NCBI GenBank assembly: GCA_010093705.1 | Contig: MU006119.1 | Location: 135,002-170,195 of the forward strand | Length of the DNA stretch: 35,194 nt | Direction: 5' to 3' | Source: Patellaria atrata CBS 101060 | Lineage: Eukaryota | Shown here: positions 3,001 to 34,813 of the stretch, piece after piece | Layout: each line of letters opens with the position of its first letter | Position numbering within the stretch: position 1 is the first letter of the stretch | The notes under the pieces: generated by a model | Database searches by the model: none | What the model was told of the DNA's origin: nothing | Seen by the model: only the letters and a program-made list of their open reading frames with translations | Program-made: the position numbers and the translations under genes

Positions 3001-3247
3001 AGAGATTTATTATTTCGAATAAAATATTATATATATTTTTAGTATTATTTATTAAAAAGTTAAAAGGAGATTAAAGATTTTATATTAATTATAAAAAACT
3101 AAATAATATTATTAAAAAGAATAAATATCTATTATTTTTAATTAAAGAAATATTAATATATTTTCGATAAATAAAGATATTTATAAAATTTAATATAAAA
3201 TAAATATTCTATTAAATTTAAATAAAAAAGTTAATTAAAAATCTTAT

Positions 3248-3655: not shown

Positions 3656-4283
3656 TATTATAATAAAAGTTTATATTTATTAAAATAAAATTAGATAAAT
3701 TTAAAAATATATTTAACTTTTTATTTAATATAGTTAACTATAAAGATAAATTTAATAAAATAATAAAATATATATAATAAAGATATTTTAAGTTAATAAT
3801 ATAATTTATTAACTTTTTAATTTTAGATAACACTTATAATAAGATAAGATATATTATATAAAAATAATATAATAAATAAAGTTAAATTTAAAACTATAAT
3901 ATTTAACTTTATAAATAAGATTAATAGTAAAAATAATTATAAAGAATTTAAATATATAAAAAAAAGATTATTTTTAAATATTTTTATTTTTTATAATTAA
4001 TTTAATTATTTATATTTTAATTATTTTAATTATTTAATTATTTAATTATTTCTTTTATAATTAAAATATTTATATATTTAAATATTTAAACTATATAATA
4101 TTTTTTAATTATTTTAATTATTTAGTTATTTAATTATTTTTTTTATAATTAAAATATTTATATATTTAAATATTTAAATTATATAATTTATTATTATTTA
4201 TTTTATTTATAATTCTTTTAAATAGTTTTCCTTTTTTCCTTTTATTTATTATTTATATATTTCTATAACTTATAACTATAATA
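3656..4283 (-). mobile_element. 628-bp solo LTR of the A/B/C Gypsy family inserted in the RT of E
   Basis: Colinear with LTRs 4952-5534 and 10919-11528 over the first ~350 bp and last ~100 bp. TSD aaata (3651-3655) / aagta (4284-4288) differs only by a G>A change. Confidence 0.9.
4015..4186. repeat. Two-copy ~88-bp tandem repeat in the U3 region of the solo LTR
   Basis: ttttataattaaaatatttatatatttaaatatttaaa occurs at 4053 and 4141 (period 88). Confidence 0.8.
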
Positions 4284-4951: not shown

Positions 4952-5534
4952 TATTATAATAAAAGTCTATATTTATTAAAATAGAATTAAATAAATTTAA
5001 AAATATATTTAACTTCTTATTTAATATAGTTAATTATAAAGATAAGTTTAATAAAGTAATAAAATATATATAATAAAAATATTTTAAGTTAATAATATAA
5101 CTTACTAACTTTTTAACTTTAAATAATACTTATAATAAGATAAAATATATTATATAAAAATAATATAATAAATTAAATTAAATTTAAAACTATAATATTT
5201 AAATTTATAAATAAAATTAATAGTAAAAATAATTATAAAAAATTTAAATATATAAAGAAAAAATTATTTTTAAATATTTTTATTCTTTATAATTAATTTA
5301 ATATATTTATATTTTAGTTATTCTAATTATTAATTATTTATAACGATTAATATAATTAGTAATTATTATCTAATTATTTTAATTATTAATTATTTCTAAT
5401 AATTAACGCGATTAATAATTATTATTTAATTATATAATTCTTTATTATTTATTTTATCTATAATTTTTTTAAATAATATTTCTTTCTTCCTCTTATTTAT
5501 TATTTATATATTTTTATAATTTATAGTTATAATA
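4952..5534 (-). repeat. 3' LTR of element B (583 bp)
   Basis: Termini tattataat...gttataata (RIP form of TGTTAC...GTAACA), followed by the complement of the polypurine tract (ttattctcttttttcttaact). Confidence 0.9.
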
Positions 5535-5650
5535 TTATTCTCTTTTTTCTTAACTTTTATCTTAAAAGTTTATTTTTTTTACTTAAGTATAAAATAAATA
5601 TATTATTTATTTATTAAATTATATATATCTTTTTTTTCTTTTTTTTTAAG

Positions 5651-6198
5651 ATATTAAAAACTAAATCTTATTTAATCTATTATTAATATTATATTATTTA
5701 TATTACTTTATATAATTATCTTATATTAACTTTTTATTTTATTTATTATTATTCTTTTTATTTTTATATTATTAATATTCTCTTTAATTTTTATTTTAAA
5801 TATTTTATTTATAATATAAAATATAATCTTATAATATTATAAAAAAATTAAGATAAACTTAATATTTTAAGAGTTAAACTTTATTATTAACTTATTTAAA
5901 CTTACTCTATTAATAATAAGGCGTTTATTTAAAAGAAATAATTAATATAATAACTTTATTTTTTTAATTAAAAAGAGATTAAAATATTTTATTATAAATT
6001 AAATTTTATTAAAAAGTTAAAAACTTTAAAATAAATAATTAAAGAATAATAAACTTTCTTAATTATTTCTTTTTTTTTATTATTATATCTTCTTCTAGTT
6101 AATTTAGTTTAAATTTCTTTATTTTTAAAAGTTTAAAATTTTCTAATTTTAATAATAAAACTATTTAAATTTTTAATTATAATTTATTAAATATTTAA
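5651..6198 (+). pseudogene. Antisense ORF relic of element B: Zn2Cys6-like cluster plus coiled coil (divergent variant)
   Basis: Aligns codon by codon with 11644-12213. Six Cys-compatible tat codons keep the x2/x6/x8/x2/x6 spacing. There is an in-frame 7-codon indel in the coiled coil and a 1-nt loss in a T-run near 6070-6078. Confidence 0.7.
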
Positions 6199-6440
6199 AT
6201 AATTTCTATATATTATTTATATATTTATAGTCTTTTTATTTTATTAAATACTTATATTAATTATTTATTTATTATAGATTTAAAATTTATTTTATTTTAT
6301 AAATATCTTCTTTTTTAAATTTTATAGATTATATTTAAAGTTTAATATTAGTATATACTAATTCTAGAAATAATATATAAAAAACTAAATATATCTTTAT
6401 TTTTTATAATAATTTTAATTTATAATTAACTTTTTCTTTA

Positions 6441-6491
6441 ATATAATCTATAAGCGAGTAGTATATATAAATAAATAATATATTTTTCCAT
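6441..6491. repeat. Left TIR of element F
   Basis: Reverse complement of 8252-8302 apart from transition differences. Confidence 0.85.
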
Positions 6492-6538
6492 TTTATTATA
6501 ATCTTTAAACTTAATTATATAGTTATAACTCGAGAAAA

Positions 6539-8203
6539 TTAATTATATTTAATTAAACTTTCTTCTTTAAATATTTCTTTATTCTTTTAATAAGTTTATA
6601 TATTATATTTAATCTTTCTATATCTTCTATAATATTATAAATATAATAATTCTTTCTTTACTAAATCTCTTTTCTTTAACTTTTTACTCGATTATCGCCT
6701 AATAATCTTTTTCTAAATAATTAATTCTTATATATCTTATATATTAAATACTTCTTCTATTTATATATATATTTTTTTAGCTTATCGTCGCTTTATAAGT
6801 ATCTTATTAGCCTTTCGAAGCGTTTAGACCTTATTATATATAAATATTATTTTATAAGTAATAAACTTTATACTCTTTATTAATTATTTAATAGTTAAGA
6901 AAATAGTATTTAAAGAACTTCCTTAATATTAAATTATCTAATTCTTAATATATTTAGACTACGAAATAGCTTTTTTAAAGTTATTTAATATCTAAAAAAC
7001 TTATAAATCGGTAGCGGGAAGAAAAAATCTAGTTAATATTAATATTTATAACTTTATATTAAGCTTTAAAATAATAGCTTAAAGATTATAAAGAACTAGG
7101 CTAATATTAAAGAAACTCGCTTAAATATTTTTAATCGTTATAATATTAATATAGATATTTTTAAATATAATAAAGAATTTAATTTTAGTGATATAGTTAA
7201 TATAAACTTTAATAAAGACTTTAAGTTCCCGGCTATATATTCGTTTTAATACGCTAAAATATCTAATATTTAAAGATTAGATAAGATGCGAAAAATATAT
7301 AAATAAATAAATAGTAATAATATTCTTTTCTTTATAGAATTCCTTAAACTAAACTAATAAATAACTTATATAATTATTAAGAATAATTATCTAATAAATA
7401 TTTTTTTATTAGATATTTATATATTAATGGAAATACTAAATTTAGTCTATAGCTATCTTTTTATCTATTTAGCCGTTTAGCGAGATCTTAATAACTTAAG
7501 AAAGCGGGAGACTATATTTAATATATTAAAATATAAGATAATTAACGCCTTATATAATTAAGAAAAAAGATAGTATAAAACTATTATTACTTATATACTC
7601 GATTATTATAGCTTATTCGCGATTATTAGGCTAAAGTTATTTATCTTTATTACGTCTATTAATACACGTAATAACTATATCGTTATAAATAATATCTATT
7701 ATAAAGTCTATTTTATCGAAGTTATAAAGATTAATATCTTAAATTATATATTTCGCGTATATATTAGTTATTAAATAGAATTATATATTTATCGTATTTA
7801 AATTTTTATAAAGAGCTCTTTAGAAATCGTAAATATAAGAAAAATATATTTTTAGTTTTAATTATTATTTAATAAAGTTCTCTATTTAATACTTTTTTAT
7901 ATATCCTATAACGCGTTTCACGAGAAGTAGATTAGCTATCTCTTCTATATTAACTAGCTAAGATAGAAACCCTCATGTATTTAAGTCTAAAATATATTAG
8001 ACGATTATCTCTTCTTTAGTTTCTATTAACTTTTAAGAATTAGGGCGATAGTCGCGTTTAAAAGTTTAGCCGTTTATTCTCGTATAAAAGATAGTTTTAG
8101 AGATATTATAGATTATTATAACTTTCTAATAGCTAAGTTTTTTATTACGTTAAAAAGTTTAGATAATAAGGATAATTTAATTTTTATTTAATTATATAGA
8201 TAT
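6539..8203 (-). pseudogene. pogo/Fot1 DDE transposase relic (~554 codons)
   Basis: De-RIP reading gives MSIQSNENQIILAIQ... at the start and ILDGH.SHLSAQFEEFCKEKNIITICLPAHSSHLTQPLDVGCFSVLKRMYSRELE (~7385-7220). The C-terminus ...ARTCQKDEEMSEEES is in the same frame as the start. Confidence 0.88.
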
Positions 8204-8251
8204 TATTAGTTATAGAGAAATATATTATTATAGAAGAAAAAGTTATAATAT

Positions 8252-8302
8252 ATAAAAAAGTATATTATTTATTTATATATATTACTCGTTTATAGATTAT
8301 AT
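8252..8302. repeat. Right TIR of element F
   Basis: ...tattatttatttatatatattactcgtttatagattatat, an inverted copy of 6441-6491. Confidence 0.85.
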
Positions 8303-10918
8303 TAATTTATTTAATTTTAAAAGAGTTAATTTTTTTATAATTTAATTTTTTATTAAATCGTTTTATTTTAAAATTTTTCTATAATAAATAAACTTTATTC
8401 TTTTTTTTAAAGATTAATTTTAATAATTTATATTAATTATTATATTTTATAGTTTTTATTATTTAAAAAGCTATATTTTATAATAATTATATATATAATT
8501 CTTTAATTTATTTAACTTTTAATATTACTTCTTATAAAATATTTTAAATTATTCTCGATTTATAATATACTTTTAATTTAAAATTATAGTTTATATAAAA
8601 GAGTAAAATCTTTATAATATTAAATTTTATATTATTATATATAAATTATACTATTAATAGTAACTTTATTTAATTATTTTATTAATAATTTATATAATTA
8701 TATAAATATTATTTTAAAGATTAATTTATTCTTTTAATTTAATTATTTATTTATAAATAAAAGTTTATTAATAATTTATAATTTATCTTTAAACTTTATA
8801 TTAAAATTTATTAAAATATTAATTTAAATAATTTATCTTTATTTAAAATAATCTTTTTTAATATTTAATAATTTATTAATATTATTTTTATTATTAATAT
8901 TCTTATTTATAATATTATTATTATCGTCTTTATTAATATAAAATAAATAAACTTTATTAATTATTTTATAATAATTAATATTATATTATATTCTACTTTT
9001 ATTATTAAATCTTTAAATTTTAATAAATTTATAATAAAGTTTATTATTATTAAGTTTTATACTTATTTTAATAATTTAATATATTATATTTATCTATAAA
9101 ATATATATTTTATACTCTTATTTTATATATAATTATTATATTTTAAGATAATTTATTTTATTATACTTTTTATTTTTAAAAAATAGTAATTTCTTAAAAT
9201 TCTTTTTAAGATTTTATTAATATTTTAATAACTATATATTAATACTTTATAAATCTCTTTAATAAGAATCTTTTATAATATTATTAATATATATATAAAT
9301 TTATTATATAATTATATTTTTTAAAATATTTATATTATTTTAAAATTATTATTTTTTTTAAAACTTCTTTATTATATTATTTTTCTAATAAATATTATAA
9401 ATTTATTATTTTTTTATAAATTCAATTATTAGTATTATAGTTAATCTTAATTAATTATAGATAATCGCGTTATTTTCTTTTTTTAATATTATATTATATA
9501 CTAATTTTATTTTTTTTAAATAATTAAATTTTCTATTTATAATATTATTTAATTTATTTTTAATTTCTAGTTTATAAAAGATTTTAAAATTAAAGAATAT
9601 AAATATTTTTATCTATTTTATTTATCTTTAATTTAATTTCTTTATTATAAAAAAATTTATTAAGTTTTAATAATTTAATTAAACTTTTATAATATATTTA
9701 AATTCTTTAAAATATAACTTTTACTATTTAAATATATTAATAATTATTAATGATTCTTTATTATTTATATTATAATTTAACTTTATAATTATAAACTTTT
9801 ATAAATAAAAAATTATTAAATATAATTATTTTTTCTTATTTAATTAATTTATATATATATTTAATATATAATTAAATATATTAGTTTTTAATATTATTAA
9901 TTTCTTTAAATTAAATATAATTAAAATAAATATTATAATAAACTTTTTCTTAAATTTATTAAATACTTTTTATATTTTTTTTATTTAAATAAAGATATTT
10001 TCCTTCTTTATTAATTTTAATAATAGTATTATTACTTTTAAATACTTTTAAATAAATTTTCTATAATAGTTTATAAAATTTAAAAATAATTATATATTCT
10101 TTATATTCTTTAATATTAGTTAATTTTTAATTATAATTATCTTTTTTAAATTTATTTATATTTTTTTAATAATAATAATAAAGTTTAGAAATTTCGTTTT
10201 TTTAATATAAAATTTATATTTATTTAAATATATTAAAAGTCTCTTTTCTTATAATTTTATTAATATTTTCTTTATATATTTTCTATATTTTTTAAACGTT
10301 TTATTTATATATATTAGTATATTATCTAAATAAATAATTATAAATATATTTAAATATTCTTTTAATATATAATTAATTATTACTTAAAATATTATTATAA
10401 TATTAATTAAATTAAATAATATTATTATATATTTATATAATCTAAATTTTATTCTTATAATTATTTTCTATTTTTTATCTTCTTTTATTCTAATTTAATA
10501 TTAATTATTTTAAATATTAAATTTTATAAATTATTTTACTTTTTATAATTTATCTTAAATTTTTAAGATTAAAGATAATAAATATTTATTTTTAATTATA
10601 ATATTATTTAACTATTTATAATTAATATATAATTTTAACTTATTATTTTTCTTTAATATAAATAAAATTAATAAAATTATTAAATTTTTATTAAATTATA
10701 TATATCTTTTTTTTAAATTAATATAAATATATTCTTTAAATATTTTATATTATTTTTTTATTAATAAATAAATTAAATTAAATTATAATTTTATATTTTT
10801 TTTTAATATTATTTTATAATTTTATATTTAATAATTTAGAAATATAATTATTATATCTTTTTTAAATAAATCTTTAAACTTATTATATTCTTTAAATATA
10901 TTAGATTTTTTAAAAATC

Positions 10919-11528
10919 TATTATAACGGGAGTCTATACTTATTAAGACGGAACTAGATAAATCTAGAAACACGTCTAGCTTCTCACTTAACGTGGTTAA
11001 CTATAAAGATAGGTTTAGTAAAGTGATAGGATATATATAATAAAGGCATTTTAAGTTATCGATATAACTTACTAACTCCTTAACTTTCGGTAATACTTAT
11101 AATAAGATAAGACGTACTATATAGAAATAATATAATAAGTGAAGTTAAGTTTAAAACTATAATATCTAAATTTATAGATAAGATTAATAATAAGAATAAC
11201 TATAAAAAATCTAAATATATAAGAGAAAGACCGTTCTTAAATATTCCTATCCTCTATAGTTAATTTAGTATACCTATACCTTTTTAGATATAGTGGCCGT
11301 TTTAAATATAGATCTCCTTCTACGTCCTTTACGTCTATTACGTCTATAACCTAGACGTCCTAAATATAATGGACGTGGATCCCCTCTTACGTTCTTTATA
11401 TCTATTACGTCTATAGTTTCTAATCACGTGACCCCTTATTACTAGTTTTATCCGTAGTTCTCCCGAGTGGTGTTCCTACTTTCCCCTTACTTATTATCTA
11501 TATATTTCTATAACTTATAGTCGTAATA
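10919..11528 (-). repeat. 3' LTR of element A (610 bp)
   Basis: Direct repeat of 17741-18350, with termini tattataacggg...gtcgtaata. Confidence 0.95.
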
Positions 11529-11545
11529 CTATCCTCCTTTTTCTT
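11529..11545 (-). other. Polypurine tract of element A
   Basis: ctatcctcctttttctt = aagaaaaaggaggatag on the minus strand, abutting the 3' LTR. Confidence 0.8.
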
Positions 11546-11643
11546 AACTCTTATTTTAAGAGTTTATTCCTTTTACTTAAGTATAAAGTAGCCGTATTAC
11601 CTATCTATTAAGTCGTACGCACCTCTTTTTCCTTTCTTCTAAG

Positions 11644-12213
11644 ATACCTTAAACTAAATCTCGCGTAGTTTATCGTCGGTGTCTTATAGCCTAAATTATA
11701 TCCTCCGGTCGACTAATACTTACTCCCTATTTAATCTATCGCCGTTAATCTTATATTTACCGTCTCGATCTCTCTTCCGGCTTCTATTCTAAGTGTATAG
11801 CTCGTGGTTTAAAATGCGACCTTATAGTGATATAAAAGGATTAAGATAAGTTAAACGCTTCGCGATCTAAGCTTCGTCGTAAACTCGCTAAGGCGCGAGT
11901 TTCCCGTGATAACGTACACGCCCGGATATTAGAGGCTTTTACTCGTGAGGAGCGATTAATATAGTAACTCTAACTTCTCGATTAGAAGAAGGGCGAAATA
12001 ATTCATCGTAAGCTTAATTCTATTAAGAAACTTAAGGCTTTAAAGCGAGTAGCTAAAGGGTAGCGAGCTTCCTCGATCGCTCCTTCTTCCTCCATTATCG
12101 TGTCTTTCTCTAGTTAGTCTAGTTTAGATTTCCCTACCCTTAAGGGTCTAGAATTCCCTAGTTTTAACGATAAAACTATTTAAGTTTCTAATCGTAGTTC
12201 GTTAAGTGTTTAA
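11644..12213 (+). pseudogene. Antisense ORF relic of element A: predicted Zn(II)2Cys6-like cluster (11728-11817), coiled coil and Ser/acidic tail, ~190 codons
   Basis: De-RIP using A and C: MPRTKSR..HRRRLVAQIMSSGRP..TPCS.CRRQS..CRLDLSSGFCSECIARGLKCDL..TQKDWDKLDASRSKLRRELAEAR.SRDN.HARMLEAFAREERLMQQLQLLDQKEGEMIRRELSSIEELEALER. All stops are TAA/TAG explicable as RIP of CAA/CAG/TGG/CGA. The true stop position is uncertain. Confidence 0.75.
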
Positions 12214-15200
12214 GTGGTTTCTATATATTATCTATATATTTATAGTCTTTTCATTTTACTAAATACTTATACTAATTATTTATTTATTATAGGTCTAAGA
12301 TTTATTCTATCTCGTAGATATCTTCTTCCTCGAGTTCTATAGATCGTGTTTAAAGTTTAGTATTAGTAGATACTAGTTCTAGGAGTAATATATAGAAAAT
12401 TAAGTATATCTTTATTTCTTATAGTAATTCTAACTTATAATTAACTTTTCCTTTAACCTATTTAATTCTAAAAAGGCCGATTTTCTTATAGTCTAGTTTC
12501 TTATTAGGTCGTTTTATTTTAAGGTTTTTCTATAATAAGTAAACTTTATCCCTTCTTTTAAAGGTCGGTTTTAGCGACCTATACTAGTTACTATACTTCG
12601 TAGCTCTTATTATCTAGAAAGCTATATCTCGTGATAGCTATATATATAATTCCTTAATTTACTCGACTTTTAATATTACTTCTTATAAAATACTTTAAAC
12701 CGTTCTCGGCTCTCGATATACTTCTAGTTTAAAACTATAGTTTATATAGAAGGGTAAAACCTTTATAGTATCGAATTTCGCGCTATTATATACGAATTAC
12801 GTTATTAGTAGTAGCTCTACCTAGTTATTCTACTAGTAATTTATATAGTTACGTAAGTATTACTTTAGAGATTAATTTATTCTCTTAGTCTAGCTATCCA
12901 TTTATAGATAAAAGCTCGTTAATAGCTTATAGTTTACCCTTAGACTCTATACTAGAGTCTACTAAAACGTTAATTTAAATAGTTTATCTCTATCTAAGAT
13001 AATCTCTCTCGATATTTAGTGATTTACTAGCATTATTTTTATCACTAATACTACTACTTATAGTGCTATTATCGTTATCTTTACTAGTATAAAGTAGGTG
13101 AACTTTATTAGTCGCTCCACGATAACTAATATCGCGTTATACTTTACTTCTATCGCTAGATCTTTAGATCCTAGTAGATCTATAATAAAGTCTATCGTTA
13201 TTAAGTCCTATACTCGCTTTAGTGGCTTAATATATTATATCTATCTATAAGATACGTATTTAGTACTCTTATTTCGTATATAGTCGTTATACTCTAAAAT
13301 AACTTACTTTACTATATCTCTTACCCCTAGGAAATAGTAATTCCTTAAAATCCTTTTTAAGGTTTTATTAATACCTTAGTGATCGTGTGCTAGTGCTTTA
13401 TAGATCTCTTTAGTAAGGGTCTTTCGTAGTGTCGTTAGTATATATATAAGCTTATTATATAGCTATATTCCTTAAGCTATTTATATTACCCTAAAGTCGT
13501 TACCCTTTCGGAACTCCTCTATTATACTATCCTTCTAATAAGTATCACGAATTTATTATTCTCTTATAGATTCGATTATTAGTATTATAGCTAATCTTAG
13601 CTAGTTATAGATGATTACGTCGTTTTCTTTCTTTAGTACTATATCGTATACCGGTTTTATTCCTTCTAGATAGTCGGATCTTCTATTTATAGTATCGGCT
13701 AGTCTATTTTCGACTTTTAGTCTATAGAATATCTTAAAGTTAAAAGATACGAGTGTTTCTATCTATCTTACTTATCTTCAATTTAACTTCTTTATTATAA
13801 GGAAGTTTATTAGGTTTTAATAGTCTAATTAAACTTTTATAATAAACTTAGGTTCTTTAAAGTATAACCTCTATTATTTAAATATATCGACGATTACTAA
13901 TAACTCTTTATTATATACGTTATAATTTAGCTCTACGGCCGTGAATTTCCGTAAATAAAAGGCTATTAAATATAGTCGTCCTTTCTTATCTAGCTAACTT
14001 ATATATACACCTAGTATATAATTAGATACGTTAGTCTCTAGCACTATTAGTTTCTCTAGGTTAAATATAACTAAGATAGGTATTATAGTGAACTTCTTCT
14101 TAAATTCGTTGAATACTTTCTAGACCTTCTCTATCTAAATAAAGGTATTTTCCTTCTTTATTAATTCTAATAGTGATATTATTACCTTTAAGTACCCCTA
14201 AATAAACTTTCTATAATAGTTCGCGAAATCTAGGAATAATTATATATTCTTTATATTCTTCGGCGTTGGTTAATCTTAGATTATAGCTATCTTTTTTAGG
14301 TCTACTTATATACCTTTAGTGGTAACGATAAAGTCTAGGAATTTCGTTTCTTTAGTATAGAATTCACACTTATCTAGGTGTACTAGGAGTCTCTTTTCTT
14401 ATAGTTTCGTTAATACTTTCTTTATATACTTTCTATACTCTTCGAGTATTCCGTTTATATATACTAGTATATTATCTAAGTAAGTAATTATAAATACGTC
14501 TAAATACTTTTTTAATATATAATTAATCACTACTTAGAACGTTACTAGGGCGTTAGTTAAGCTAAATAGTATTACTATATATTTATATAGTCTAAACCTC
14601 GTTCTTATAACTATCTTCTATTCTTCGCCTTCTTTTATTCTAATTCGATAGTAACCGTCTCGGATATCGAATTTCGTAAACCATTTTACTCCTTATAACC
14701 TATCTTAGATTTCTAAGATTAAGGGTAATAGGTATCTATTCTTAACCGTAGTATCGTTTAACTATTTATAGTCGATATATAATCTTAGCTTACTATTCTT
14801 CTTTAGTATAAATAGAATCGGTAAAGCTATTAGGCTTTCGCTAGGTCGTATATATCCCTTTTCTAAGTTAGTGCGGATATATTCCTCGAGTGCTTTATAT
14901 TATTCTCTTATTAACGGGTAAATCGGACCGGGTCGTAGTTTCGTACCCTCTTTTAGCACTATCTTATAATCCCACGTTTAGTGATCTAGAAGTATAGTCG
15001 CTATATCTTCCTTAAATAAATCTTTAAACTCGCTATACTTTTTAAGTATCTTAGGTTCTTTAGAAACCTTCTTAGCGTCTATTTTCCTAAGTTATACTAC
15101 TTCTACGCTCTTAGATTTATTTCTATAGATCTTTATTATCTTATAATATAAAATACATCCTACGGATATATTAACGTCCGTCTACTTAGTACGTCTCGTT

Positions 15201-15661
15201 CACTTAACTTTATCCTTTTATAAGGTGTCTCGGTTAATCTAAATACTTCTCGTCTTTTAATTAATATTTAGGTTTATTATTTATAACTAGTTTATCCCTA
15301 GAATTATATTTATATCTTCTAAATTAGTTATAAGGATATATTAAGTAGTTACCTTTCCTTATATATTAACTTTTACCGATATAGTCTTAAAGTTAATTAG
15401 ACCTCGTCTATATCCTATTTCTTCGCCATTTCCTAGTCGTAACGGGACTAGATTTTCAAGTTTCGTGTAAGGTATACTCTTCTTTTCTACCTATTAGGGT
15501 GAGATAAACGAATCGGTGGCGCCGCTATTAACTAGCGCTATCGTTCTTTTACCGTGTATAGTAATATTTATCTAAAGCGTCCTATCGTTACTTCGTAGGG
15601 TTTTAAGGAACTTAGGAGCTATATTTCTCGATTATTCCTATCTCGAGTGGCTTAGTAGTTT
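12136..15661 (-). pseudogene. pol: pol relic of element A (PR-RT-RH-IN-chromodomain)
   Basis: Mirror of the C pol at 22975-26500. The 3' end is approximate. Confidence 0.9.
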
Positions 15662-17709
15662 TTTACGTAGCTATATACTAAGTAACTAGACTTTACGTAC
15701 ACGGTCTAGTGTAGTTTATCGTGTCGATTATAATATAGATCTTTACGATATTCCTTATATTCTAATTCTTAATATTCTCGTTTAATAACTACGTTATAAC
15801 TTAAGTTACTTTTAATTCCTACTCTCTATCTTTACGCGGTATAGTAATCGTATTATATTCCTCTAATAGCGTATTACCTAAAGTCTATCGCGTTATATTT
15901 AATAACTTATTTAATAGTTTCTCTTTTATCTCTAAACGTTTCTATTTTCTATAGGAACACTTTTTCTTTATAGAACTCTTCTTTTAATCCTTTATAGTAC
16001 TAGTAATTTATACTATATTCATAATCTACCTATATTACTACTATATATTCTACGTGGATTAGCGCCCCGTAATATTGTCTATATTTTAGTTTATCCGTGT
16101 AACTAAAACTATTATACTTTCTATAGTCGCCTATTAGTGGTTCGAGTCCTCGGTTCTTTTTAAGTGTTTTCGTTTCGTCTTCGTGGGTTTTACACCCTCT
16201 TACCTAGCACTCGTTTTTAGATAAATGTACGTGTATAGGGTCTCGGTCCTTAAACTTTACTATAACCTTCTATTATTTATAGTATAAGTAGCTATCCTCT
16301 TTATACTATATTTATTAAAAGGCTAGGTAGTCTTTTACTCTTAATATAAGATTTAATTATTATTCTTTAATAGTTATATCGGTATCGGATTCGGGTTTAA
16401 TCGGTTCCTAATTTCGGAACTCTTATTTAAGCTAACGTTATTATTCTATAATCCGGTATATAAGACTTAGTCCGTTAAATATTTATACTCTAATCCTTTA
16501 ACCCTAATTCTATACTAAGTATTCTAATACTATATATACGTGTATATTTCCGTATATCTAATATTATTAGTAGTTTAAATATTATCGGAGTATCTCCTCT
16601 TCTAGCTAGTTTCCTTTTATTAGGAATAACGTTAATAGCCTACTCACTCCTATTTAGTAAGGTAGCGGCGTTTCTTCGGTCTCTTCTTCTTCTAGCGATA
16701 AGACTAGTGACGGTAGTGTTAGATATATAACTCTAAATTATATACGTCGGTTATATCGCGATAATAGTTATATCTTTTATAGATAGTCTCTCTTAAAATA
16801 TCCCACTTCTCTATATTATAGATATACTTTATTCGTAAAGCGTTCTTTCTCTTTCTAGATAAATTATTGTTATTTCTTTAACTTTTTCTATTTTATCTAT
16901 TATAGTCGGTCGAGGTCTATCGAGTCCCTTTAATTTTATCTATTCGTGGCCCTCGTTACCTTCTTTCTATATCTAACTATAATATTCTTCTATCCTCTCT
17001 TTTTCTATCTACGCTCGTATAATTTATTATCTATTTTAACTACTAAAGTCACTATATTCTATATAGTTATTAGTCTCTTATAATAAATCTATTCGTCCTT
17101 TACTTCTTCCTTTAAACCTTAGTAGAAGGCGATTATTAGTGATTTATTAGGCTAACCTAATATTAATACTACTTATTAAAATATAGTTATATATTTTAAA
17201 GTTAATTCCTTCTATCTAAGTCCTTAAAGCTTTCTTTTAGTTATCTATTATTTATCGACTTCTCTAAAGACGTTCTTAAGCGTTTCTTTAAACTTTAAAA
17301 ATAACGTGAAGATCTTACTCGTTTTATCTTCTTAATTTTCCTTATTATTCTTAAAATAGTCTCGTATAATAGGTTTAAATCATTCTAAAGTGTCTTCTTT
17401 AAGGTATGTTAATATATTAAGTATACGTTCACTATTATCTATTAGCCCTATTCTTTTATAATAGATTCTTATCTAGGTTAAGAATCCTCTTAGCTCATCT
17501 CGTTTATTATCGTATAACGCGGGTTCTTTAACTTTTATGGTTCGCTTCTATAGTAAGAGTAACTATACGGTAAGTTATTCGAGCTAGTCCCTAAGTTCTT
17601 AGACTATTCCTTTATTTTTAAGTTCGTTAATATATTTATATAACACTTAAATATATTTTTTATCCGTTTTTATATTAGCTATAGCTAATAATATCGTGTT
17701 TAAGTCTAT
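15652..17709 (-). pseudogene. gag: gag relic of element A
   Basis: Mirror of the C gag at 20927-22984. Confidence 0.85.
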
Positions 17710-17740
17710 TATACGCCTTCCTACTACGTGGTAGTTATAA

Positions 17741-18350
17741 TATTATAACGGGAGTCTATACTTATTAAGACGGAACTAGATAAGTCTAGAAACGCGCCTA
17801 GTTTCTCACTTAACGTGGTTAACTATAAAGGTAGGTTTAGTAAAGTGATAGAATACGTATAATAAAGATATTTTAAGTTATCGATATAACTTACTAACTC
17901 CTTAACTTCCGGTAATACTTATAATAAGATAAGATATACTATATAGAAATAGTATAATAAGTGAAGTTAAGTTTAAAACCGTAATATCTAAATCTATAGA
18001 TAAGATTAATAGTAAGAATAACTACGAAGAATCTAAATATATAAAGGAAAGATTATTCTTAAATATTTCTATTCTCTATAATTAATTTAGTATATCTATA
18101 TCTTTTTAGATATAGTGGCCGTTCTAGATATAAATCTCCTTCTATATCCTTTATATCTATTATATCTATAATCTAGATATCTTAGACGTGGTGGACGTAA
18201 ATCCCCTTTTATATCCTTTACGTCTATTACGTCTATAGTTTCTAATCACGTGACCCCTTATTACTAGTTTTATCTATAGTTCTCCCGAGTGGTATTCCTA
18301 CTTTCTCTTCACTCGTTATCTATATATTCTTATAACTTATAGCTATAATA
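17741..18350 (-). repeat. 5' LTR of element A (610 bp)
   Basis: Direct repeat of 10919-11528, adjacent to the PBS region and gag start on the minus strand. Confidence 0.95.
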
Positions 18351-20285
18351 AAATCTTTTTAATATTTACTTTTTTAAATTATATTATTTTTATATTTTTA
18401 AATTTATTTCTATAAATCTTTATTATTTTATAATATAAAATATATCTTATAAATATATTAATATTTATTTATTTAATATATTTTATTTATTTAATTTTAT
18501 TCTTTTATAAAATATTTTAATTAATTTAAATATTTTTTATTTTTTAATTAATATTTAAATTTATTATTTATAATTAATTTATTTTTAAAATTATATTTAT
18601 ATTTTCTAAATTAATTATAAAAATATATTAAATAATTATCTTTTTTTATATATTAACTTTTATTAATATAGTTTTAAAGTTAATTAAATTTTATTTAAAT
18701 TTTATTTCTTTATTATTTTCTAATTATAATAAAATTAAATTCTTAAATTTTATATAAAATATATTCTTTTTTTTTATTTATTAAAGTGAAATAAATAAAT
18801 TAATAATATTATTATTAATTAATATTATTATTTTTTTACTATATATAATAATATTTATTTAAAGTATTTTATTATTATTTTATAAAATTTTAAAAAATTT
18901 AGAAATTATATTTCTTAATTATTTTTATCTTAAATAATTTAGTAATTTTTTATATAATTATATATTAGATAATTAAATTTTATATATATAGTTTAATATA
19001 ATTTATTATATTAATTATAATATAAATCTTTATAATATTTTTTATATTTTAATTCTTAATATTTTTATTTAATAATTATATTATAATTTAAATTACTTTT
19101 AATTTCTACTTTTTATCTTTATATAATATAATAATTATATTATATTTCTTTAATTATATATTATCTAAAGTTTATCGTATTATATTTAATAATATATTTA
19201 AATATTTTCTTATTATTTTAAAATATTTTTATTTTTTATAGAAATATTTTTTTTTATAAAACTTTTCTTTTAAATCTTTATAATATTAATAATTTATATT
19301 ATATTTATAATCTATTTATATTATTATTATATATTCTATATAAATTAATATTTAATAATATTATTTATATTTAAATTTATTTATATAATTAAAACTATTA
19401 TATTTTCTATAATTATTTATTAATAACTTAAATTTTTAATTCTTTTTAAATATTTTTATTTTATTTTTATAAATTTTATATTTTTTTATCTAATATTAAC
19501 TTTTAAATAAATATATATATATAAAATCTTAATTTTTAAACTTTATTATAATTTTCTATTATTTATAATATAAATAATTATTTTTTTTATATTATATTTA
19601 TTAAAAGATTAAATAATCTTTTACTTTTAATATAAAGTTTTATTATTATTTCTTTATAATTATATTAATATTAAATTTAAGTTTAATTAATTTTTAATTT
19701 TAAAATTTTTATTTAAATTAATATTATTATTTTATAATCTAATATATAAAATTTAATTTATTAAATATTTATATTTTAATTCTTTAATTTTAATTTTATA
19801 TTAAATATTTTAATATTATATATATATATATATATTTCTATATATTTAATATTATTAATTATTTAAATATTATTAAAATATTTTTTTCTTTAATTAATTT
19901 TCTATTATTAAAAATAATATTAATAATTTATTTATTTTTATTTAATAAAATAATAATATTTTTTTAATCTTTTTCTCTTTTAATAATAAAATTAATAATA
20001 ATAATATTAAATATATAACTTTAAATTATATATATTAATTATATTATAAAAATAATTATATTTTTTATAAATAATTTTTTTTAAAATATTTTATTTCTTA
20101 TATTATAAATATATTTTATTTATAAAATATTCTTTTTCTTTTTAAATAAATTATTATTATTTCTTTAATTTCTTTTATTTTATTTATTATAATTAATTAA
20201 AATTTATTAAATTTTTTTAATTTTATTTATTTATAACTTTTATTATTTTCTTTTTATATTTAATTATAATATTTTTCTATCTTTT

Positions 20286-20895
20286 TATTACGGCTATAAG
20301 TTATAGGAATATATAGATAACGAGTAAGGGGAAAGTAGGAACACCACTTAAGAGAACCACGGATAAAACTAGTAATAAGGGATCACGTGATTAGAAACTA
20401 TAGATGTAATAGACGTAAAGAATATAAGAGAGGATCCACGTCTATTATATCTAAGACGTCTAGGTTATAGACGTAGTAGATATAAAGAATATAGAAGGAG
20501 ATTTACGTCTAAAATAGTTATTACGTCTAAAAAGATATAGATATATTAAATTAATTATAGAGGATAGGAATATTTAAGGATAATCTTTCCCTTATATATT
20601 TAGATTCTTCGTAGTTATTCTTACTATTAATCTTATCTATAGATTTAAATATTACGGTTTTAAACTTAACTTTACTTATTATATTATTTCTATATAGTAT
20701 ATCTTATCTTATTATAAGTATTACCGGAAGTTAAGAAGTTAGTAAGTTATATCGATAACTTAAAATACCTTTATTATATATATTCTATCACTTTACTAAA
20801 TTTATCTTTATAGTTAACCACGTTAAGTGAGAAGCTAGGCGTGTTTCTAGATTTATCTAGTTCTATCTTAATAAGTATAGACTCCCGTTATAATA
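20286..20895 (+). repeat. 5' LTR of element C (610 bp)
   Basis: tattacggc...cccgttataata (RIP form of TGTTACGGC...GTTGTAACA or similar), a direct repeat of 27108-27717. Confidence 0.95.
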
Positions 20896-20897
20896 TT

Positions 20898-20905
20898 ATA
20901 ACTAC
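20898..20905 (+). promoter_or_regulatory. Candidate self-priming PBS (ataactac), complementary to gtagttat at 20611-20618 within the LTR
   Basis: Lies 2 nt downstream of the 5' LTR. No TGG-starting tRNA-type PBS is visible. The complementary 8-mer sits just downstream of a TATA-like tatatatt (20593-20600). Confidence 0.4.
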
Positions 20906-20926
20906 TATATAGTAGAAAGGCGTATA

Positions 20927-22984
20927 ATAAATCTAGATATAATATTATTAGCCGTAGCTAACACGAAAACGGATAAAGAATATATTTAGGCGTTATATAA
21001 ATATATTAATAAACTCGAAAATAAAGAAATAATCTAAGAACTTAGAGACTAGCTTAAATAACTTACTATATAATTACTCTCACTATAAAAGCGAACCGCG
21101 AAAGTTAAAGAACCCGCGTTATACGATAGTAAACGAGATAAGTTAAAAGGATTCTTAATCTAAATAAGAATCTATTATAAAAGAATAGAGCTAACGGACG
21201 ATAATAAACGTATACTCGATATATTAACGTACCTTAAAGAAGACGCTTTAGAATAGTTCGAATCTATTATACGAGATTATCTTAAGAATAATAAGGAAGA
21301 TTAAAAAAACGAAATAAGTAAAATTTTCGCGTCGTTTCTAAAGTTTAAAGAAACGTTTAAGAACGTCTTTAAGAAAATCGACGAATAATAGGTAATTAAA
21401 AGGAAGTTTTAAGGATTTAAATAAAAGGAATTAGCTTCGAAGTATATAACTATATTCTAATAGATAGTATTAATATTAGATTAGCCTAATAAACCACTAA
21501 TAATCGCCTTCTACTAAGGTTTAAAGGAAGAAGTGAAGGACGAATAAGTTTATTATAAGAGACTAATAACTATATAGAATATAGTAACCTTAATAATTAG
21601 AATAGATAATAGATTATACGAGCGTAAATAGAAAAAGGGAGGACGGAAGAATATTATAATTAGATATAAGAAGAAGGTAACGAGGGCTATAAATAGATAA
21701 AATTAGAGGGATCTAATAGACCTCGACCGACTATAATAGATAAAATAGAAAAAGTCGAAGAAATAATAATAATTTATTTAGAAAGAGAAAGAACATTTTA
21801 TAAATAAAGTATATCTATAATATAGAGAAGTGGGATATTTTAAGAGAGACTATCTATAAAAGACGTAACCACTATCGCGATATAACCGACGTATATAACT
21901 TAGAGTTATATATCTAATACCACCGTCACTAGTCTTATCGCTAGAAGAAGAAGAGACCGAAGAAACGCCGCTATCTTACTAGATAGAGGTGAGTAGGCTA
22001 TTAACGTCGTTCCTAATAAAAGGAAACTAGCTAGAAGAGGAGATACTCCGATAATATTTAGACTACTAATAATATTAGACGTACGGAAACGTATATATAT
22101 ATATAGTATTAGAATACCTAGTATAGAATTAGGGTTAAAGAATTAAAGTATAAATATTTAATAGACTAAACCTTATATACTAAATTATAGAATAATAACG
22201 TTAGCTTAAATAAGAGTTCTAAGATTGAAAACCGATCGAACCTAAATCTAATACCGACGTGACCGTTAAAGAATAATAATTAAATCTTATACTAAGAGTA
22301 GAAGACTATCTAGCCTTTTAATAGATATAATATAAGGAGGATAGCTACTTATACTATAAATAATAGAAGGTTATAGTAAAGTTTAGGGACTAAGACCCTA
22401 TATATATATATTTACCTAAAAGTAAGTGCTAGGTAAGAGGGTATAAAACCCACGAAGATGAAACGAAAACACTTAAAAAGAACTAAGGACTCGAATCACT
22501 AATAGGCGACTATAGAAAGTATAATAGTTTTAGTTATATAGATAAACTAAAATATAGACGATATTACGAGGCGCTAATCCATATAGAATATATAGTAGTA
22601 ATATAGGTAGATTATAAATATAGTATAGATTACTAATACTATAAAGGATTAGAAGAAGAGTTTTATAAAAGAAAAATATTCCTATAGAAAATAGAAGCGC
22701 TTAAAGATAAAAGAGAAACTATTAAGTAAGTTACTAGATATAACGCGATAGACTTTAGATAATACGTTATTAGAGGGATATAATATAATTACTATACCGC
22801 GTAAAGATAGAGAGTAGAAATTAAAAGTAACCTAAGTTATAACGTAGTTATTAAACGAGAATATCGAGAATTGGAATATAAGGAATATCGTAAAGGTCTA
22901 TATTACGATCGACACGATAAACTACACTAGACCGTATACGTAAAGTCTAGTTACCTAGTATATAGCTACGTAAAAAACTACTAA
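20927..22984 (+). pseudogene. gag: gag relic of element C (~685 codons) with CCHC zinc knuckle and long C-terminal extension
   Basis: De-RIP reading gives ...KVKEPALYDGKRDELRGFLTQMRIY... and ...LMIAFYQGLKEEVKDE.... The knuckle C-L-Q-C-G-E-V-G-H-F-K-R-D-C lies at 21812-21853 in the same frame. Confidence 0.85.
22972..22978 (+). promoter_or_regulatory. Probable -1 ribosomal frameshift heptamer A AAA AAC at the gag/pol junction
   Basis: Phased X XXY YYZ in the gag frame (gta aaa aac), and pol is in the -1 frame relative to gag. Mirror site in A at 15658-15664. Confidence 0.7.
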
Positions 22985-25900
22985 ACCACTCGAGATAAGA
23001 ATAATCGAGAAGTATAGCTCCTAAATTCTTTAAAACCCTATAAAGTAACGATAGGACGCTTTAAGTAGATATTACTATACACGGTAAAAGAACGATAGCG
23101 CTAGTTAATAGCGGCGCCACCGATTCGTTTATCTCACCCCGATAGGTAGAAAAGAAGAGTATACTTTACACGAAACTTAAAAATCTAGTCCCGTTATAAC
23201 TAGGAAATAGTGAAGGAATAGGATATAGACGAGGTCTAATTAACTTTAGGACTATACTAGTAGAAGTTAATATATAAGGGAAGATAACTATTTAATATAT
23301 CTTTATAACTAATCTAGGAGATATAAATATAATTCTAGGGATAGATTAGTTATAAATAGTGAACCTAGATATTAATTAAAAGACGAGAAGTATCTAAATT
23401 AACTAAAATATCTCACGAAAAAATAGAGTTAAGCGAACGAGATATATTAAATAGACGGACGTTAGTATATCTATAGGACGTATTTCGTATTATAAGATAA
23501 TAAAGATTTATAGAAATAAACTTAAGAGCGTAGAAGTAGTATAGTTTAGGAAAATAGACACTAAAAAGGTTTCTAAAGAACCTAAGATACCCGAAGAGTA
23601 TAGCGAGTTTAAAGATTTATTTAAGGAAGATATAACGACTATACTTCTAGATTACTAGACGTGGGATTATAAGATAGTGCTAAAGGAGGGTGCGAAACTA
23701 CGACTCGGTTCGATTTACCCGTTAATAAGAGAATAATATAAAGCACTTAAGGAATATATCCGTATTAACTTAGAAAAGGGATATATATAACCTAATAAAA
23801 GCCCGATAGCTTCACCGATTCTATTTATACTAAAGAAGAATAGTAAGCTAAGATTATATATCGACTATAAATAGCTAAATAATACTATAGTTAAGAATAA
23901 ATATCTATTACCTTTAATCTTAGAAATCTAAGATAGGTTATAAAGAGTAAAGTGGTTTACGAAATTCGATATCCGAGACAGTTACTATCGAATTAGAATA
24001 AAAGAAGGCGAAGAATAGAAGATAGCTATAAGAATAAGGTTTAGACTATATAAATATATAATAATATCGTTCGGTTTAATTAACGCCCTAGTAACGTTCT
24101 AAGTAGTGATTAATTATATACTAAGAGAGTATTTAGATATATTTATAACTACTTACCTAAATAATATACTAGTATATATAAATAGAACACTCGAAGAGTA
24201 TAGGGAGTATATAAAGAAAGTATTAACGAAATTACGAGAAAAGAGACTCTTAGTATACCTAGATAAATATAAATTTTATACTAAAGAAACGGAATTTCTA
24301 AGCTTTATCGTTACCACTAAAGGTATATAAGTAGACCTAAAAAAGATAGTTATAATTTAAGATTAACCGACGCTAAAGAACGTAAAGGACGTATAATCGT
24401 TCCTAAATTTTATAAACTATTATAGAAAATTTATCTAGGGGTACTTAAAGATAATAATATCGCTATTAGAATTAATAAAGAAGGAAAATACCTTTATTTA
24501 GATAGAGAAGATCTAGGAAGTATTTAATAAACTTAAGAAGAAGTTTATTATAATATCTATCTTAGTTATATTTAATCTAGAGAAACTAATAGTGCTAAAG
24601 ACTAATATATCTAATTATATATTAGGTGTATATATAAGTTAGCTAGATAAGAAAGGACGACTACACCTAATAGTCTTTTATTCACGGAAATTCACGGCCG
24701 TAGAGCTAAATTACGACGTACACGATAAAGAGTTATTAGTAATCGTCGACGTATTTAAATAGTGGAGGTTATACTTTAAAGGACCTAAGTTTATTATAAA
24801 AGTTTAGTTAAATTATTAAAACCTAATAAACTTCCTTATAATAAAAAAGTTAAATCGAAGATAAGTAAGATAGGTAAAAACACTTATATCTTTTAACTTT
24901 AAGATATTCTATAGACTAAAAGTCGAAAATAGACTAGTCGATACTATAAATAGAAGATCCGACTATCTAAAAAGAATAAAACTAGTATATAACGTAGTAC
25001 TAAAGAAAGAAAACGACGCGATCACTTATAATTAGCTAAGATTAGCTATAATACTAATAATTAAATCCACGAGAGAATAATAAATTCGTGATACCTATTA
25101 GAAGGATAGTATAATAGAGGAGTTCTAAAAGGGTAATAATTCTAGGGTAATATAAATAGCTTAAGGAATATAGCTATACGACGGGCTTATATATATACTA
25201 ACGACACTATAAAAGACCCTTACTAAAGAGATCTATAAAGTACTAGCACACGGTCACTAAGGTATTAATAAAACCTTAAAAAGGATTTTAAAGAATTACT
25301 ACTTCCTAAAGGTAAGAGGTATAGTAAAGTAAGTTATTTTAAAGTATAATAACTACGTACGAAATAAGAGTGCTAAACACGTATCTTATAGATAGATATA
25401 ATATATTAAGCCACTAAAGCGAGTATAGAACTTAATAACGATAGACTTTATTATAGGTCTACTAGAATTTAAAGATCTAGCGATAAAAGTAAAGTATAAC
25501 ACGATATTAATTATCGTGGAGCGACTAATAAAGTTCACCTACTTTATATTAGTAAAGATAACGATAATAGTATTATAAGTAGTAGTATTAGTGATAAAAA
25601 TAGTGCTAATAAATTATTAAATATCGAGAGAAATTATCTTAGATAGAGATAAACTATTTAAATTAACGTTTTAGTAGACTCTAATATAGAGTCTAGAGAT
25701 AAACTATAAGCTATTAATAAGTTTTCACCTATAAATAGATAGCTAGACTAAGAGAATAAATTAATCTCTAAAGTAATACTTACGTAACTATATAAATTAC
25801 TAATAGAATAACTAGATAGAGCTACTATTAATAGCGTAATTCGTATATAATAGCGCGAAATCCGATACTACGAAGGTTTTACCCTTCTATACAAATTACG

Positions 25901-26500
25901 GTTTTAAACTAGAAGTATATCGAGAGCCGAGAACGGTTTAAAGTATTTTATAAAAAGTAATATTAAAAGTCGAGCAAATTAAGGAATTATACGTATAGTT
26001 ATTACGAGATATAGCTTTCTAAACGATAAGAGCTACGAAGTATAGTAACTAGTATAGATCGCTAAAACTAATCTTTAAAAGAGGGGATAAAGTTTACTTA
26101 TTATAGAAAAACCTTAAAATAAAACGACCTAATAAGAAACTAGATTATAAGAAAATCGGCCCCTTTAGAATTAAATAGGTTAAAGGAAAAGTTAATTATA
26201 AGTTAGAATTACTATAAGGAATAAAGATATATCTAGTTTTCTATATATTACTCCTAGAACTAGCACCTACTAATATTAAACTCTAAATACGATCTATAGA
26301 ACTTAAGGAAGAAGATATTTACGAGATAGAATAAATCTTAGACCTATAACGAGTAAATAGTTAGTATAAGTATTTAGTAAAATAGAAAGGTTACGAACAC
26401 GTAAATAATATATAGGAACTACTTAAACACTTAACGAACTATAATTAGAAACTTAAATAGTTTTATCGCTAAAACTAGGGAATTCTAGACCCTCGAGGAT
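22975..26500 (+). pseudogene. pol: pol relic of element C (PR-RT-RH-IN-chromodomain); includes the 74-aa ORF-track fragment 24106-24330
   Basis: Protease ALV(D)SGATDSF (~23098-23130). RT WFTKFDIRD.YYRIR and Y-L-(D)-(D) (24154-24165). RNase [26 protein letters not shown] (~24672-24750). Integrase HGHQG, MDFI.GLP and HPQTDGQTERTNQ. Chromodomain YLVKWKGYEHVDNTWEPLKHLTNC (~26370-26442). The 3' end is approximate. Confidence 0.93.
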
Positions 26501-26992
26501 AGAGAAATCTAAACTAGACTAACTAGAGGGAGACACGATAGCGGAGGAAGAAAGAGTGACCGAGAAAGCTCGCTACCCTTCGACTACTCGCTCTAAAGTC
26601 TTAAGTTCCTCGATAGAACTAAGCTTACGACGAATTATTTCGCTCTCCTTCTAATCGAGAAGTTAGAGCTACTATATTAATCGCTCCTCACGAGCGAAAG
26701 CCTCTAATATCCGGGCGTGTACGTTATTACGGGAAACTCGCGCCTTAGCGAGCTTACGATAAAGCTTAGATCGCGAAGCGTTTAGCTTATCCTAATCCTT
26801 TTATATCATTATAAGGTCGTATTTTAAACCACGAGCTATACACTTAGAATAGAAGCCGGAAGAGAGATCGAGATAGTAAATATAAGACTAACGGCGATAG
26901 ATTAAATAGGGAGTAAGTATTAGTCGACCGGAGGATATAATTTAGGCTATAAGACGCCGACGATAAACTACGCGAGATTTAGTTCGAGGTAT
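26423..26992 (-). pseudogene. Antisense ORF relic of element C: Zn(II)2Cys6-like cluster (26819-26908) plus coiled coil
   Basis: Second copy of 11644-12213. It keeps cga (R) where A has taa, and has tac where A keeps tgc (C), showing that the stops and Tyr codons are RIP products. Confidence 0.75.
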
Positions 26993-27090
26993 CTTAGAAG
27001 AAAGGAAAAGGAGATATATATAACTTAATAGATAGGTAATACGTCTACTTTATACCTAAGTAAAAGGAATAAACTCTTAGGATAAGAGTT

Positions 27091-29021: not shown

Positions 29022-29026
29022 ATATA

Positions 29027-34808: not shown

Positions 34809-34813
34809 TTAAA

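Follow-up and report, generated by a model that had tools for sequence, protein, structure and literature searches.

A Putative Antisense Zn2Cys6 Gene Beside a Variable U3 Block in a Chromovirus Family of Patellaria atrata

The Locus and Its Element Family

We analyzed a stretch of 35,194 nucleotides from Patellaria atrata CBS 101060 (GenBank assembly GCA_010093705.1, contig MU006119.1, positions 135,002 to 170,195 of the forward strand), hereafter called the window. Self-comparison of the window, repeated in purine/pyrimidine (RY) code, which is insensitive to C>T and G>A changes, showed that it is a nest of copies from one long terminal repeat (LTR) retrotransposon family. Our subject is the region 5310-6040, which would be the 3′ end of an old Ty3/gypsy chromovirus copy, B, saturated by repeat-induced point mutation (RIP). 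Three features appear to lie in this region: an enhancer-like tandem array in U3 of the 3′ LTR, a polypurine tract, and about 130 codons from the start of an accessory gene. This gene would occupy the space between pol and the 3′ LTR and be read in the opposite direction. Its predicted product, 165-190 aa in length, is a Gal4-type protein in which a Zn2Cys6 cluster is followed by a long coiled-coil helix and by an acidic, disordered tail. A model working from the letters alone (the sequence-only reading) had proposed that a zinc-cluster open reading frame (ORF) and the U3 repeats diverge together between subfamilies, as a candidate regulator and its binding sites. The best overall explanation of our results is probably that of a chromovirus with an accessory Zn2Cys6 gene and with old cassettes that were swapped.

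Two young copies of the element, each of 7432 bp with 610-bp LTRs, were found in the window, namely A (10919-18350, gag-pol on the minus strand) and C (20286-27717, gag-pol on the plus strand). Each of them was inserted into the older copy B, with 5-bp target duplications of AAATC and CTTTT, so that B now lies in pieces (4952-6441, 8302-10918, 18351-20285 and 27718-29021). The target duplication of B itself, ATATA, is also of 5 bp and was found at both B ends. The 3′ LTR of B occupies 4952-5534 on the minus strand; it has a GC content of 6.7%. The polypurine tract of B adjoins this LTR and was placed at 5535-5554 (minus strand) by sequence inspection.

On the minus strand of A, Pfam matched RVP_2, RVT_1, RT_RNaseH_2, Integrase_H2C2 and SH3_Tf2-1 in this order and in a single frame. 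The gag-pol frame of A covers 12150-17740 on that strand and thus holds protease, reverse transcriptase, RNase H, integrase and SH3 parts. Pfam gave no Chromo match in the RIPed A at E ≤ 0.001; a chromodomain motif is visible at the end of the pol translation of A, and PF00385 (Chromo) is carried by 20 of 22 pol homologues. Because of the one-frame domain order, the chromodomain motif and the Chromo domains of the homologues, the family can be classed as a Ty3/gypsy chromovirus. The LTRs, the 5-bp target duplications and the polypurine tract are likewise those of a Ty3/gypsy element. The copies in the window are dead, and the interest lies in the family. The GC content within the window ranges from 3% to 34%, and neither of its strands has an ATG-started ORF as long as 100 codons.

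The Antisense ORF as a Gene

The antisense ORF sits between pol and the 3′ LTR, on the opposite strand, in all three full copies of the window. It was located at 11644-12213 (plus strand) in A, with a 165-codon core from 11716 and a 24-codon N-terminal extension from 11644 inferred from homologues, and at 26423-26992 (minus strand) in C. The B copy, at 5651-6198 (plus strand), was placed by RIP-aware alignment to paralogues; it is RIP-saturated, contains a 1-bp frameshift, and has its divergent part at 5656-6019. When the A copy was translated with X at stops, it matched one protein, P0001, with an E-value of 5e-47. P0001 is a hypothetical protein of 165 aa from P. atrata CBS 101060 with the UniRef label Zn(2)-C6 fungal-type. 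By undoing C>T and G>A changes only, 162 of the 165 residues of P0001 can be reached from A and 163 from C. The A and C copies have 10 internal stops each, and all of these stops are of the RIP type. P0001 is in effect the A allele without RIP damage.

The sequence of B has a GC content of only 4-7%, and any alignment of such DNA is permissive. It could be argued that the ORF is a chance frame and that its divergence is an artefact of RIP saturation and of misalignment of AT-rich DNA. Tyr is frequent in RIPed translations, which makes the Cys-to-Tyr pattern of B weak alone, and Pfam returned no match for the three RIPed ORF copies of the window (X at stops). However, a RIP-aware six-frame scan gave scores of 316, 321 and 116 at the three expected places, and these places alone exceeded the background of at most 24. 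Intact homologues exist. In addition, the alignment of A and B is gap-free over 11649-11897, and the transversions in it are beyond the reach of RIP. We rejected the artefact, to which almost no probability can be assigned.

The proteins P0001-P0007 have the spacing CX2CX6CX8CX2CX6C, with two exceptions: Tyr occupies the first position in P0002 and the sixth Cys is absent in P0005. This spacing lies within the Zn2Cys6 pattern CX2CX6CX5-12CX2CX6-8C. Two of the cysteines survive in the A copy, and the other four are Tyr codons reachable by G>A. Among 37 members of the family, C8 is invariant, and C5, C15, C24, C27 and C34 are at least 90% conserved. An AlphaFold2 model made from 37 relatives had a mean predicted local distance difference test (pLDDT) score of 83, with values of 89-99 over residues 1-115. 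In this model, two short helices belong to the cluster, residues 40-120 make up a single helix, and the tail is disordered. Foldseek returned 29 rows for this model, and about 24 of them were Zn2Cys6 DNA-binding domains (Put3, Leu3, Gal4, Pho7, Hap1, Ppr1, AlcR and Cep3).

Three results weigh against the assignment of the protein to the Zn2Cys6 class. P0001 scored 14.4 bits with the Pfam profile Zn_clus (PF00172), for which the cut-off is 21 (E 0.042), and so it falls short of the profile cut-off. Only 7 of the 37 family members reached E ≤ 0.01 with PF00172, the best value being 1.8e-4. Every Foldseek E-value was weak, at 0.07 or above (0.07-1.7 in the top rows). Nevertheless, the antisense ORF is supported as a genuine conserved gene of the element, which encodes a divergent Zn2Cys6 and coiled-coil protein. 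The P0001 match, the RIP-compatible residues and the six-cysteine spacing confirm as a real gene what the sequence-only reading had taken for an antisense zinc-cluster ORF.

The 24-residue N-terminal extension is present in most relatives. The extension frame lies at 11644-11715 in A, 5651-5722 in B and 26921-26992 in C, and relatives in other fungi have a similar one; the seven P. atrata gene models, however, all begin at the second Met. The extension of A opens with ATA at 11644, which is reachable from ATG. Because a compatible frame exists in A, B and C behind such a codon, the full ORF is probably 11644-12213, and its divergent island would consist of codons 2-130. Every stop in the pol frame of A is reachable by RIP. 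The pol homologues cease aligning near 12184, and their tails extend roughly 17-41 residues past the chromodomain motif. It is possible that pol overlaps the conserved 3′ third of the antisense ORF.

Relatives of the Protein and Their Loci

P. atrata itself has six further paralogues of P0001. In an exhaustive search, 401 cluster representatives passed E ≤ 1e-3 and 86 passed E ≤ 1e-10; with few exceptions they are 80-290 aa long. The named members of the family come from Watsoniomyces, Aaosphaeria and Aureobasidium and are all annotated as 'hypothetical'. In the ESM Atlas, the protein falls among unnamed Ascomycota clusters.

A search for related loci with six members found two, L001 and L002, both in metagenome contigs; it found no related loci in genome contigs and none in viral contigs. 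The ORF is linked to an element in both loci. In L002, the ORF (9001-9432) and a RIPed pol are convergent, and the end of this pol matches Chromo (E 9.6e-4; 19.5 bits, below the cut-off of 25.1). The ORF is located between LTRs that are 6274 bp apart. Under the explanation that we favor as a whole, a large and unnamed protein family would travel with fungal chromoviruses.

L001 is un-RIPed and has the gene order gag, LTR, ORF. Over its positions 1-2537, gag, which starts at 1391 on the minus strand, is followed by one LTR and then by the antisense ORF. Either two elements share this LTR, or the assembly has run through LTRs of identical sequence. Within the antisense Zn2Cys6 gene, a 49-nt GT...CTGAC...TAG intron occupies 2201-2249, and removal of this intron restores the family consensus (…SEAEWKKL…). 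Because the intron lies on the antisense strand and has survived retrotransposition, we infer that a separate antisense mRNA may be made.

RIP and the Two Islands of Divergence

Copies A and C differ at 743 positions over 7432 bp, and 742 of these differences are transitions. The GC content is about 29% in A and C, 3-7% in the LTRs of B, and 3-10% in B and its surroundings. Because of the excess of transitions and the AT enrichment, all three copies can be read as mutated by RIP. Where copies A and C disagree, the retained cytosine is followed by G in 289 cases, by T in 262 and by A in just 80; CpA is seemingly exhausted in both copies.

Each piece of B was aligned with A under a transition-tolerant score, and the transversions were counted in 150-bp intervals. 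Over gag-pol, nearly all intervals had 0-2 transversions, with ~41 in 5300 bp. Together with the A-C transitions, this low number agrees with the earlier claim that B differs from A and C almost only by C>T and G>A. The sole gag-pol interval with a raised number of A-B transversions was 15814-15963 (6 in 150 bp), which may be a further small exchanged patch.

Two islands exceeded this background. The first one, at 11219-11518, has 19 transversions and gaps and is the U3 repeat block. The second one, at 11669-11968, has 31 transversions and in-frame gaps and lies in the antisense ORF. The island edges are sharp. The transversions of the ORF island span 11649-12033. Between 11644 and 12033 there are 40 transversions in 390 bp and in-frame gaps of 3 and 18 bp, and in the 180 bp of the ORF past the island there are none. 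The start of the ORF is thus as rich in transversions as had been noticed. An equal transversion density in pol and the ORF, which had been set beforehand as an outcome that refutes the proposal, was not observed.

The stretch between the islands (11421-11648) has only 3 transversions in 228 bp, so that the two blocks are indeed separated by much better conserved DNA, as the sequence-only reading had said. This spacer contains the end of the LTR and the polypurine tract, and few transversions occur around the latter.

The U3 Repeat Blocks

The B-type U3 block, at 5316-5426, consists of a 56-bp unit in about 2.4 copies. Tandem Repeats Finder (TRF) gave a 56-bp period with 2.4 copies over 5318-5452, and the best self-offset was also 56, which agrees with the ~56-bp unit described earlier. 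The A-type block, at 11283-11420, consists of two loose 67-bp units that are made of 9-bp-spaced GACGT/ACGTC words. The best self-match of the block was at offset 67 (62% on the de-RIPed consensus and 80% in RY code), but TRF did not call a 67-bp unit in A or C and gave a 9-bp period alone. In the de-RIPed A-type block, the GACGT words stand in threes with 9-bp spacing, first forward and then inverted. There are 12 ACGT cores in ~140 bp, and the unit was rightly described as ACGT-rich; a single CGG occurs among them.

We also compared the blocks with each other in RY code. The A and B blocks aligned with a score of 27. Shuffled sequences scored 22.2 ± 3.9, and 37 out of 300 reached the value of the true pair. 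The two units are unrelated, as had been stated. The score of the B block with the block of a solo LTR, F, was reached by 0 of 300 shuffles, which showed that these two are related. Solo LTR F lies at 3656-4283 (minus strand) and has a third version of the block, with an 88-bp unit at 4019-4138. Its R-U5 part is like that of the chassis (3 transversions in 363 bp), and its 5′ U3 part is slightly divergent (5/108 against A). The target duplication of F is AAATA/AAGTA, in which the two sides differ by one transition. No ORF copy was found after F, where the RIP-aware scores were at background. Judged by its sequence, F would be a third mosaic, in which a chassis-like R-U5 is joined to a U3 block related to that of B.

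At least three U3 versions were seen (A-type, B-type and F-type), and the U3 block is supported as a second variable cassette. The two LTRs of B differ by 19 bp in this block. The 5′ LTR of B, at 28465-29021 (minus strand), has its B-type block at 28829-28920, 19 bp shorter than that of the 3′ LTR.

Origin of the ORF Alleles and U3 Versions

The transversions of the ORF island are distributed over codon positions 1, 2 and 3 as 15, 6 and 19, with a depletion at position 2 (chi-square p = 0.036). In the N-terminal extension the distribution is 2, 2 and 8, so that 8 of the 12 transversions are on the third position. Because position 2 is depleted and the indels are in frame, both alleles are likely to have diverged as working genes. 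Third-position transversions reach ~15% in the ORF island against 0.8% in gag-pol. This difference suggests that the ORF alleles are much older than the chassis and were swapped in; it is not a pattern that positive selection in place can yield.

The Zn cluster of B fits the type II paralogues (CIVDIPSGF type), with a local RIP-aware score of 94/104 for P0007 and 41 for P0001, whereas the background is at most 24. The coiled coil of B is closer to type I. Because the two parts side with different types, the B allele can be read as a recombinant inside the ORF. Furthermore, the Zn cluster of B is nearly residue-for-residue compatible with intact P. atrata paralogues, which suggests that the B allele pre-existed. 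A comparison of the intact P0001 and P0003 repeats the pattern of A and B: the cluster and linker agree at 36 of 47 residues, the coiled coil at 14 of 46 and the tail at 66 of 72. This supports the view that the variable part of the protein, also among intact paralogues, is the putative N-terminal DNA-binding part together with the coiled coil. At least five ORF alleles were seen.

Fast local evolution in place after the split of A and B would be another way to produce the islands, by positive selection on the protein and repeat slippage and with no exchange. Tandem repeats are quick to change, as the 19-bp difference between B's own LTRs illustrates, and, in the cluster and coiled coil, first codon positions account for many changes (13 of 26). 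However, 19 of the 40 transversions are on third positions, at a rate far above the background given above, the Zn cluster type of B already exists intact elsewhere in the P. atrata genome, and the A and B U3 blocks have no detectable similarity. We rejected evolution in place, which is improbable on this evidence.

The explanation by swapped cassettes would run as follows. Both variable blocks would be alternative and older cassettes on a recently shared gag-pol/LTR chassis. The mosaic would have arisen via recombination of co-existing subfamilies, either by template switching in reverse transcription or by gene conversion. Turnover of the U3 tandem repeats may have contributed, and fast point evolution in place would not be the source. 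Recombination between subfamilies is well known in retroviruses and LTR elements.

Some points do not fit such an exchange easily. The left edge of the ORF island (11649) is at the inferred start codon (11644) and the right edge is inside the gene, which is unexpected of a random crossover. Islands that flank a conserved stretch of 228 bp need at least two exchanges, or one exchange and later homogenisation. No donor copy was seen. Such edges may mean that the island is shaped by selection on the protein. Because both the left edge at the start codon and the conserved spacer misfit a simple random exchange, selection may also decide which mosaics survive.

Possible Self-Regulation and a Matched Pair

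As a transcription factor of the element's own, the protein would act on the LTR. U3 arrays of CG-containing words, 9-10 bp apart, stand 300-430 bp upstream of the ORF; for the A-type element and L001 taken together, the range is 240-430 bp from the ORF start. This is where a fungal upstream activating site (UAS) would sit, and the position makes self-regulation plausible, if still rather unlikely. In L001, the U3 array consists of GCGATCAC ×7, five forward and two inverted with 10-bp spacing, and the word occurs nowhere else in the contig.

The proposal that regulator and site diverge as a pair goes further. Within each subfamily, the Zn2Cys6 allele would bind its own U3 version, and the pair would be held by selection while the rest is homogenised, similar to Tat/TAR or Tax/TRE. 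The distribution of the variation suits this idea, for the A-B islands are the U3 array and the predicted DNA-binding and coiled-coil part of the protein, and the ORF island has its edge at the start codon. The U3 words contain CG and stand in both orientations (GACGT in the A-type, GCGATCAC in L001), and in both elements the array lies upstream of the ORF within the range given above. Moreover, L001 and A differ both in the word and in the residues between the second and third cysteine. The geometry CGT-N6-CGT would be that of Hap1-type direct repeats.

However, the window offers a single independent comparison (A/C against B). If three U3 and five ORF versions reassorted freely, both blocks would differ about half the time, which is an illustrative estimate with equal version frequencies assumed. 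The good conservation of the 228-bp stretch shows that crossovers do occur between the blocks, and the ORF of B is itself a mosaic. Both types have one and the same linker (CDL.VTQKDWDKL) beside the cluster, and variation is highest in the distal coiled coil, which by analogy with the Gal4 family would govern the choice of partner more than the spacing of sites. Only one CGG occurs in the A-type array. Its ACGT or CRE-like words would serve host bZIP or bHLH factors equally well, and ACGT words are classic sites of these host factors. We consider the matched pair doubtful. Of the co-diverging regulator and site that had been proposed, the real Zn2Cys6 gene, its variable N-terminus and the second cassette in U3 have stood, but the alleles appear to be old and swapped and the pairing depends on one comparison.

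A wider proposal would be that a widespread ascomycete lineage of chromoviruses encodes a minimal antisense Gal4-type factor, with the U3 array of the 3′ LTR as its UAS, the array of the 5′ LTR driving the element, and exchangeable specificity cassettes. This is speculative and has only a small chance of being right. If it is true, the element would form a self-activating loop and co-resident subfamilies would live without cross-activation, and an LTR retrotransposon would for the first time be seen to have a specificity system of the Tat/TAR kind. The question whether a retrotransposon supplies its own transcription factor thereby comes within reach of a direct test, which takes two short proteins and a pair of short DNA arrays.

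Other Features of the Window

The 3′ and 5′ LTRs of A are located at 10919-11528 and 17741-18350, both on the minus strand. Those of C are on the plus strand, the 5′ LTR at 20286-20895 and the 3′ LTR at 27108-27717, the latter with an A-type U3 block at 27216-27353. A (flanks at 10914-10918 / 18351-18355) and C (flanks at 20281-20285 / 27718-27722) both landed in the far more heavily RIPed B, which would fit chromodomain-guided insertion into heterochromatin.

The pol of B is interrupted at 6442-8301 by an insertion of 1860 bp with a GC content of 17.7%. The insertion ends in imperfect inverted repeats of ~19 bp, which are flanked by TA/TTAA-like duplicated bases, and it is probably a RIPed DNA transposon. 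At 3074-3230, in inverted orientation, a piece of a different but related element has 87% RY identity to A at 14630-14786. The region 28000-35194 is 7 kb of DNA with a GC content of 3-4% and no recognisable family match; it probably consists of older RIP-saturated repeats. Gene content can be recovered from DNA of 4-7% GC by purine/pyrimidine coding and RIP-aware translation.

Comparison with Known Systems

Boty-like Ty3/gypsy elements of Botrytis and Sclerotinia have an antisense gene, brtn (Zhao et al. 2011, Virology 417:248, as cited in PMC7264820, PMC8365987, PMC4227169 and PMC5987419). According to the citing passages, Boty resembles the present element in being a fungal gypsy element with a chromodomain and with an extra antisense gene between pol and the 3′ LTR. 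The likeness concerns the kind of element and the position and orientation of the gene, and the citing passages do not mention cassette-like variation of alleles. None of the named family members that were looked up bears the name BRTN, and the supplements of PMC8365987 mention neither brtn nor zinc. In the literature searched, which did not reach Zhao et al. 2011, no description of a Zn2Cys6 gene in an LTR element was found.

Plant elements also have antisense ORFs between pol and the 3′ LTR, such as gene23 of Grande and those of RIRE2, Retand and PvRetro13 (PMC7264820). The passages of that paper used here suggest that these ORFs act in regulation and that their products localise to the nucleus; an antisense promoter of its own is shown for Grande, and no clear similarity to database proteins is described (PMC7264820). 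As far as these passages go, the plant ORFs agree with the present gene in position and orientation. They differ in that the predicted fold of the present gene product is recognisable as a DNA-binding domain, and they belong to plant hosts and to elements that are mostly not chromoviruses.

The HBZ gene of HTLV-1 encodes an antisense bZIP factor that is transcribed from the 3′ LTR; the factor is dimeric and its transcript is spliced. HBZ and the present gene are alike in that a retroelement encodes an antisense and dimeric transcription factor, putative in the present case, beside its 3′ LTR. The splicing of HBZ has a counterpart in the 49-nt intron of the antisense gene of L001, and in terms of function HBZ would be the nearest analogue. 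However, HBZ has a different DNA-binding fold, no homology to the present protein and an animal retrovirus as its carrier, whereas the present gene is known from sequence. The antisense promoter of HTLV-1 is mentioned in the section of PMC7264820 referred to above.

The present protein is like Gal4, Put3, Leu3 and Hap1 in its six-cysteine spacing and in its predicted structure, where a helix comes after two short helices of the cluster; these proteins are among its best structural matches. It differs from the Gal4 type in being only 165-190 aa long, without a middle homology or Fungal_trans domain, and in being encoded by a mobile element. Its helix is much longer (about 80 residues), and its Pfam score is under the cut-off. 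Gal4 has a Lys-Lys pair before the third Cys, and the present family has Q/S/F-S in place of it.

The tobacco elements Tnt1A, Tnt1B and Tnt1C have different U3 repeat boxes and a shared coding region. In the present family, too, the subfamilies share gag-pol and the LTR ends and have unrelated tandem-repeat blocks in U3. Unlike Tnt1, the present family has a second variable cassette 230 bp away, in a putative DNA-binding protein that the element encodes. Antisense extra genes of LTR retrotransposons are already known, and the product of the one described here has a predicted fold that is recognisable as DNA-binding. The gene occurs in hundreds of sequence clusters, mostly unnamed, and its cassette-like alleles lie beside a cassette-like enhancer block.

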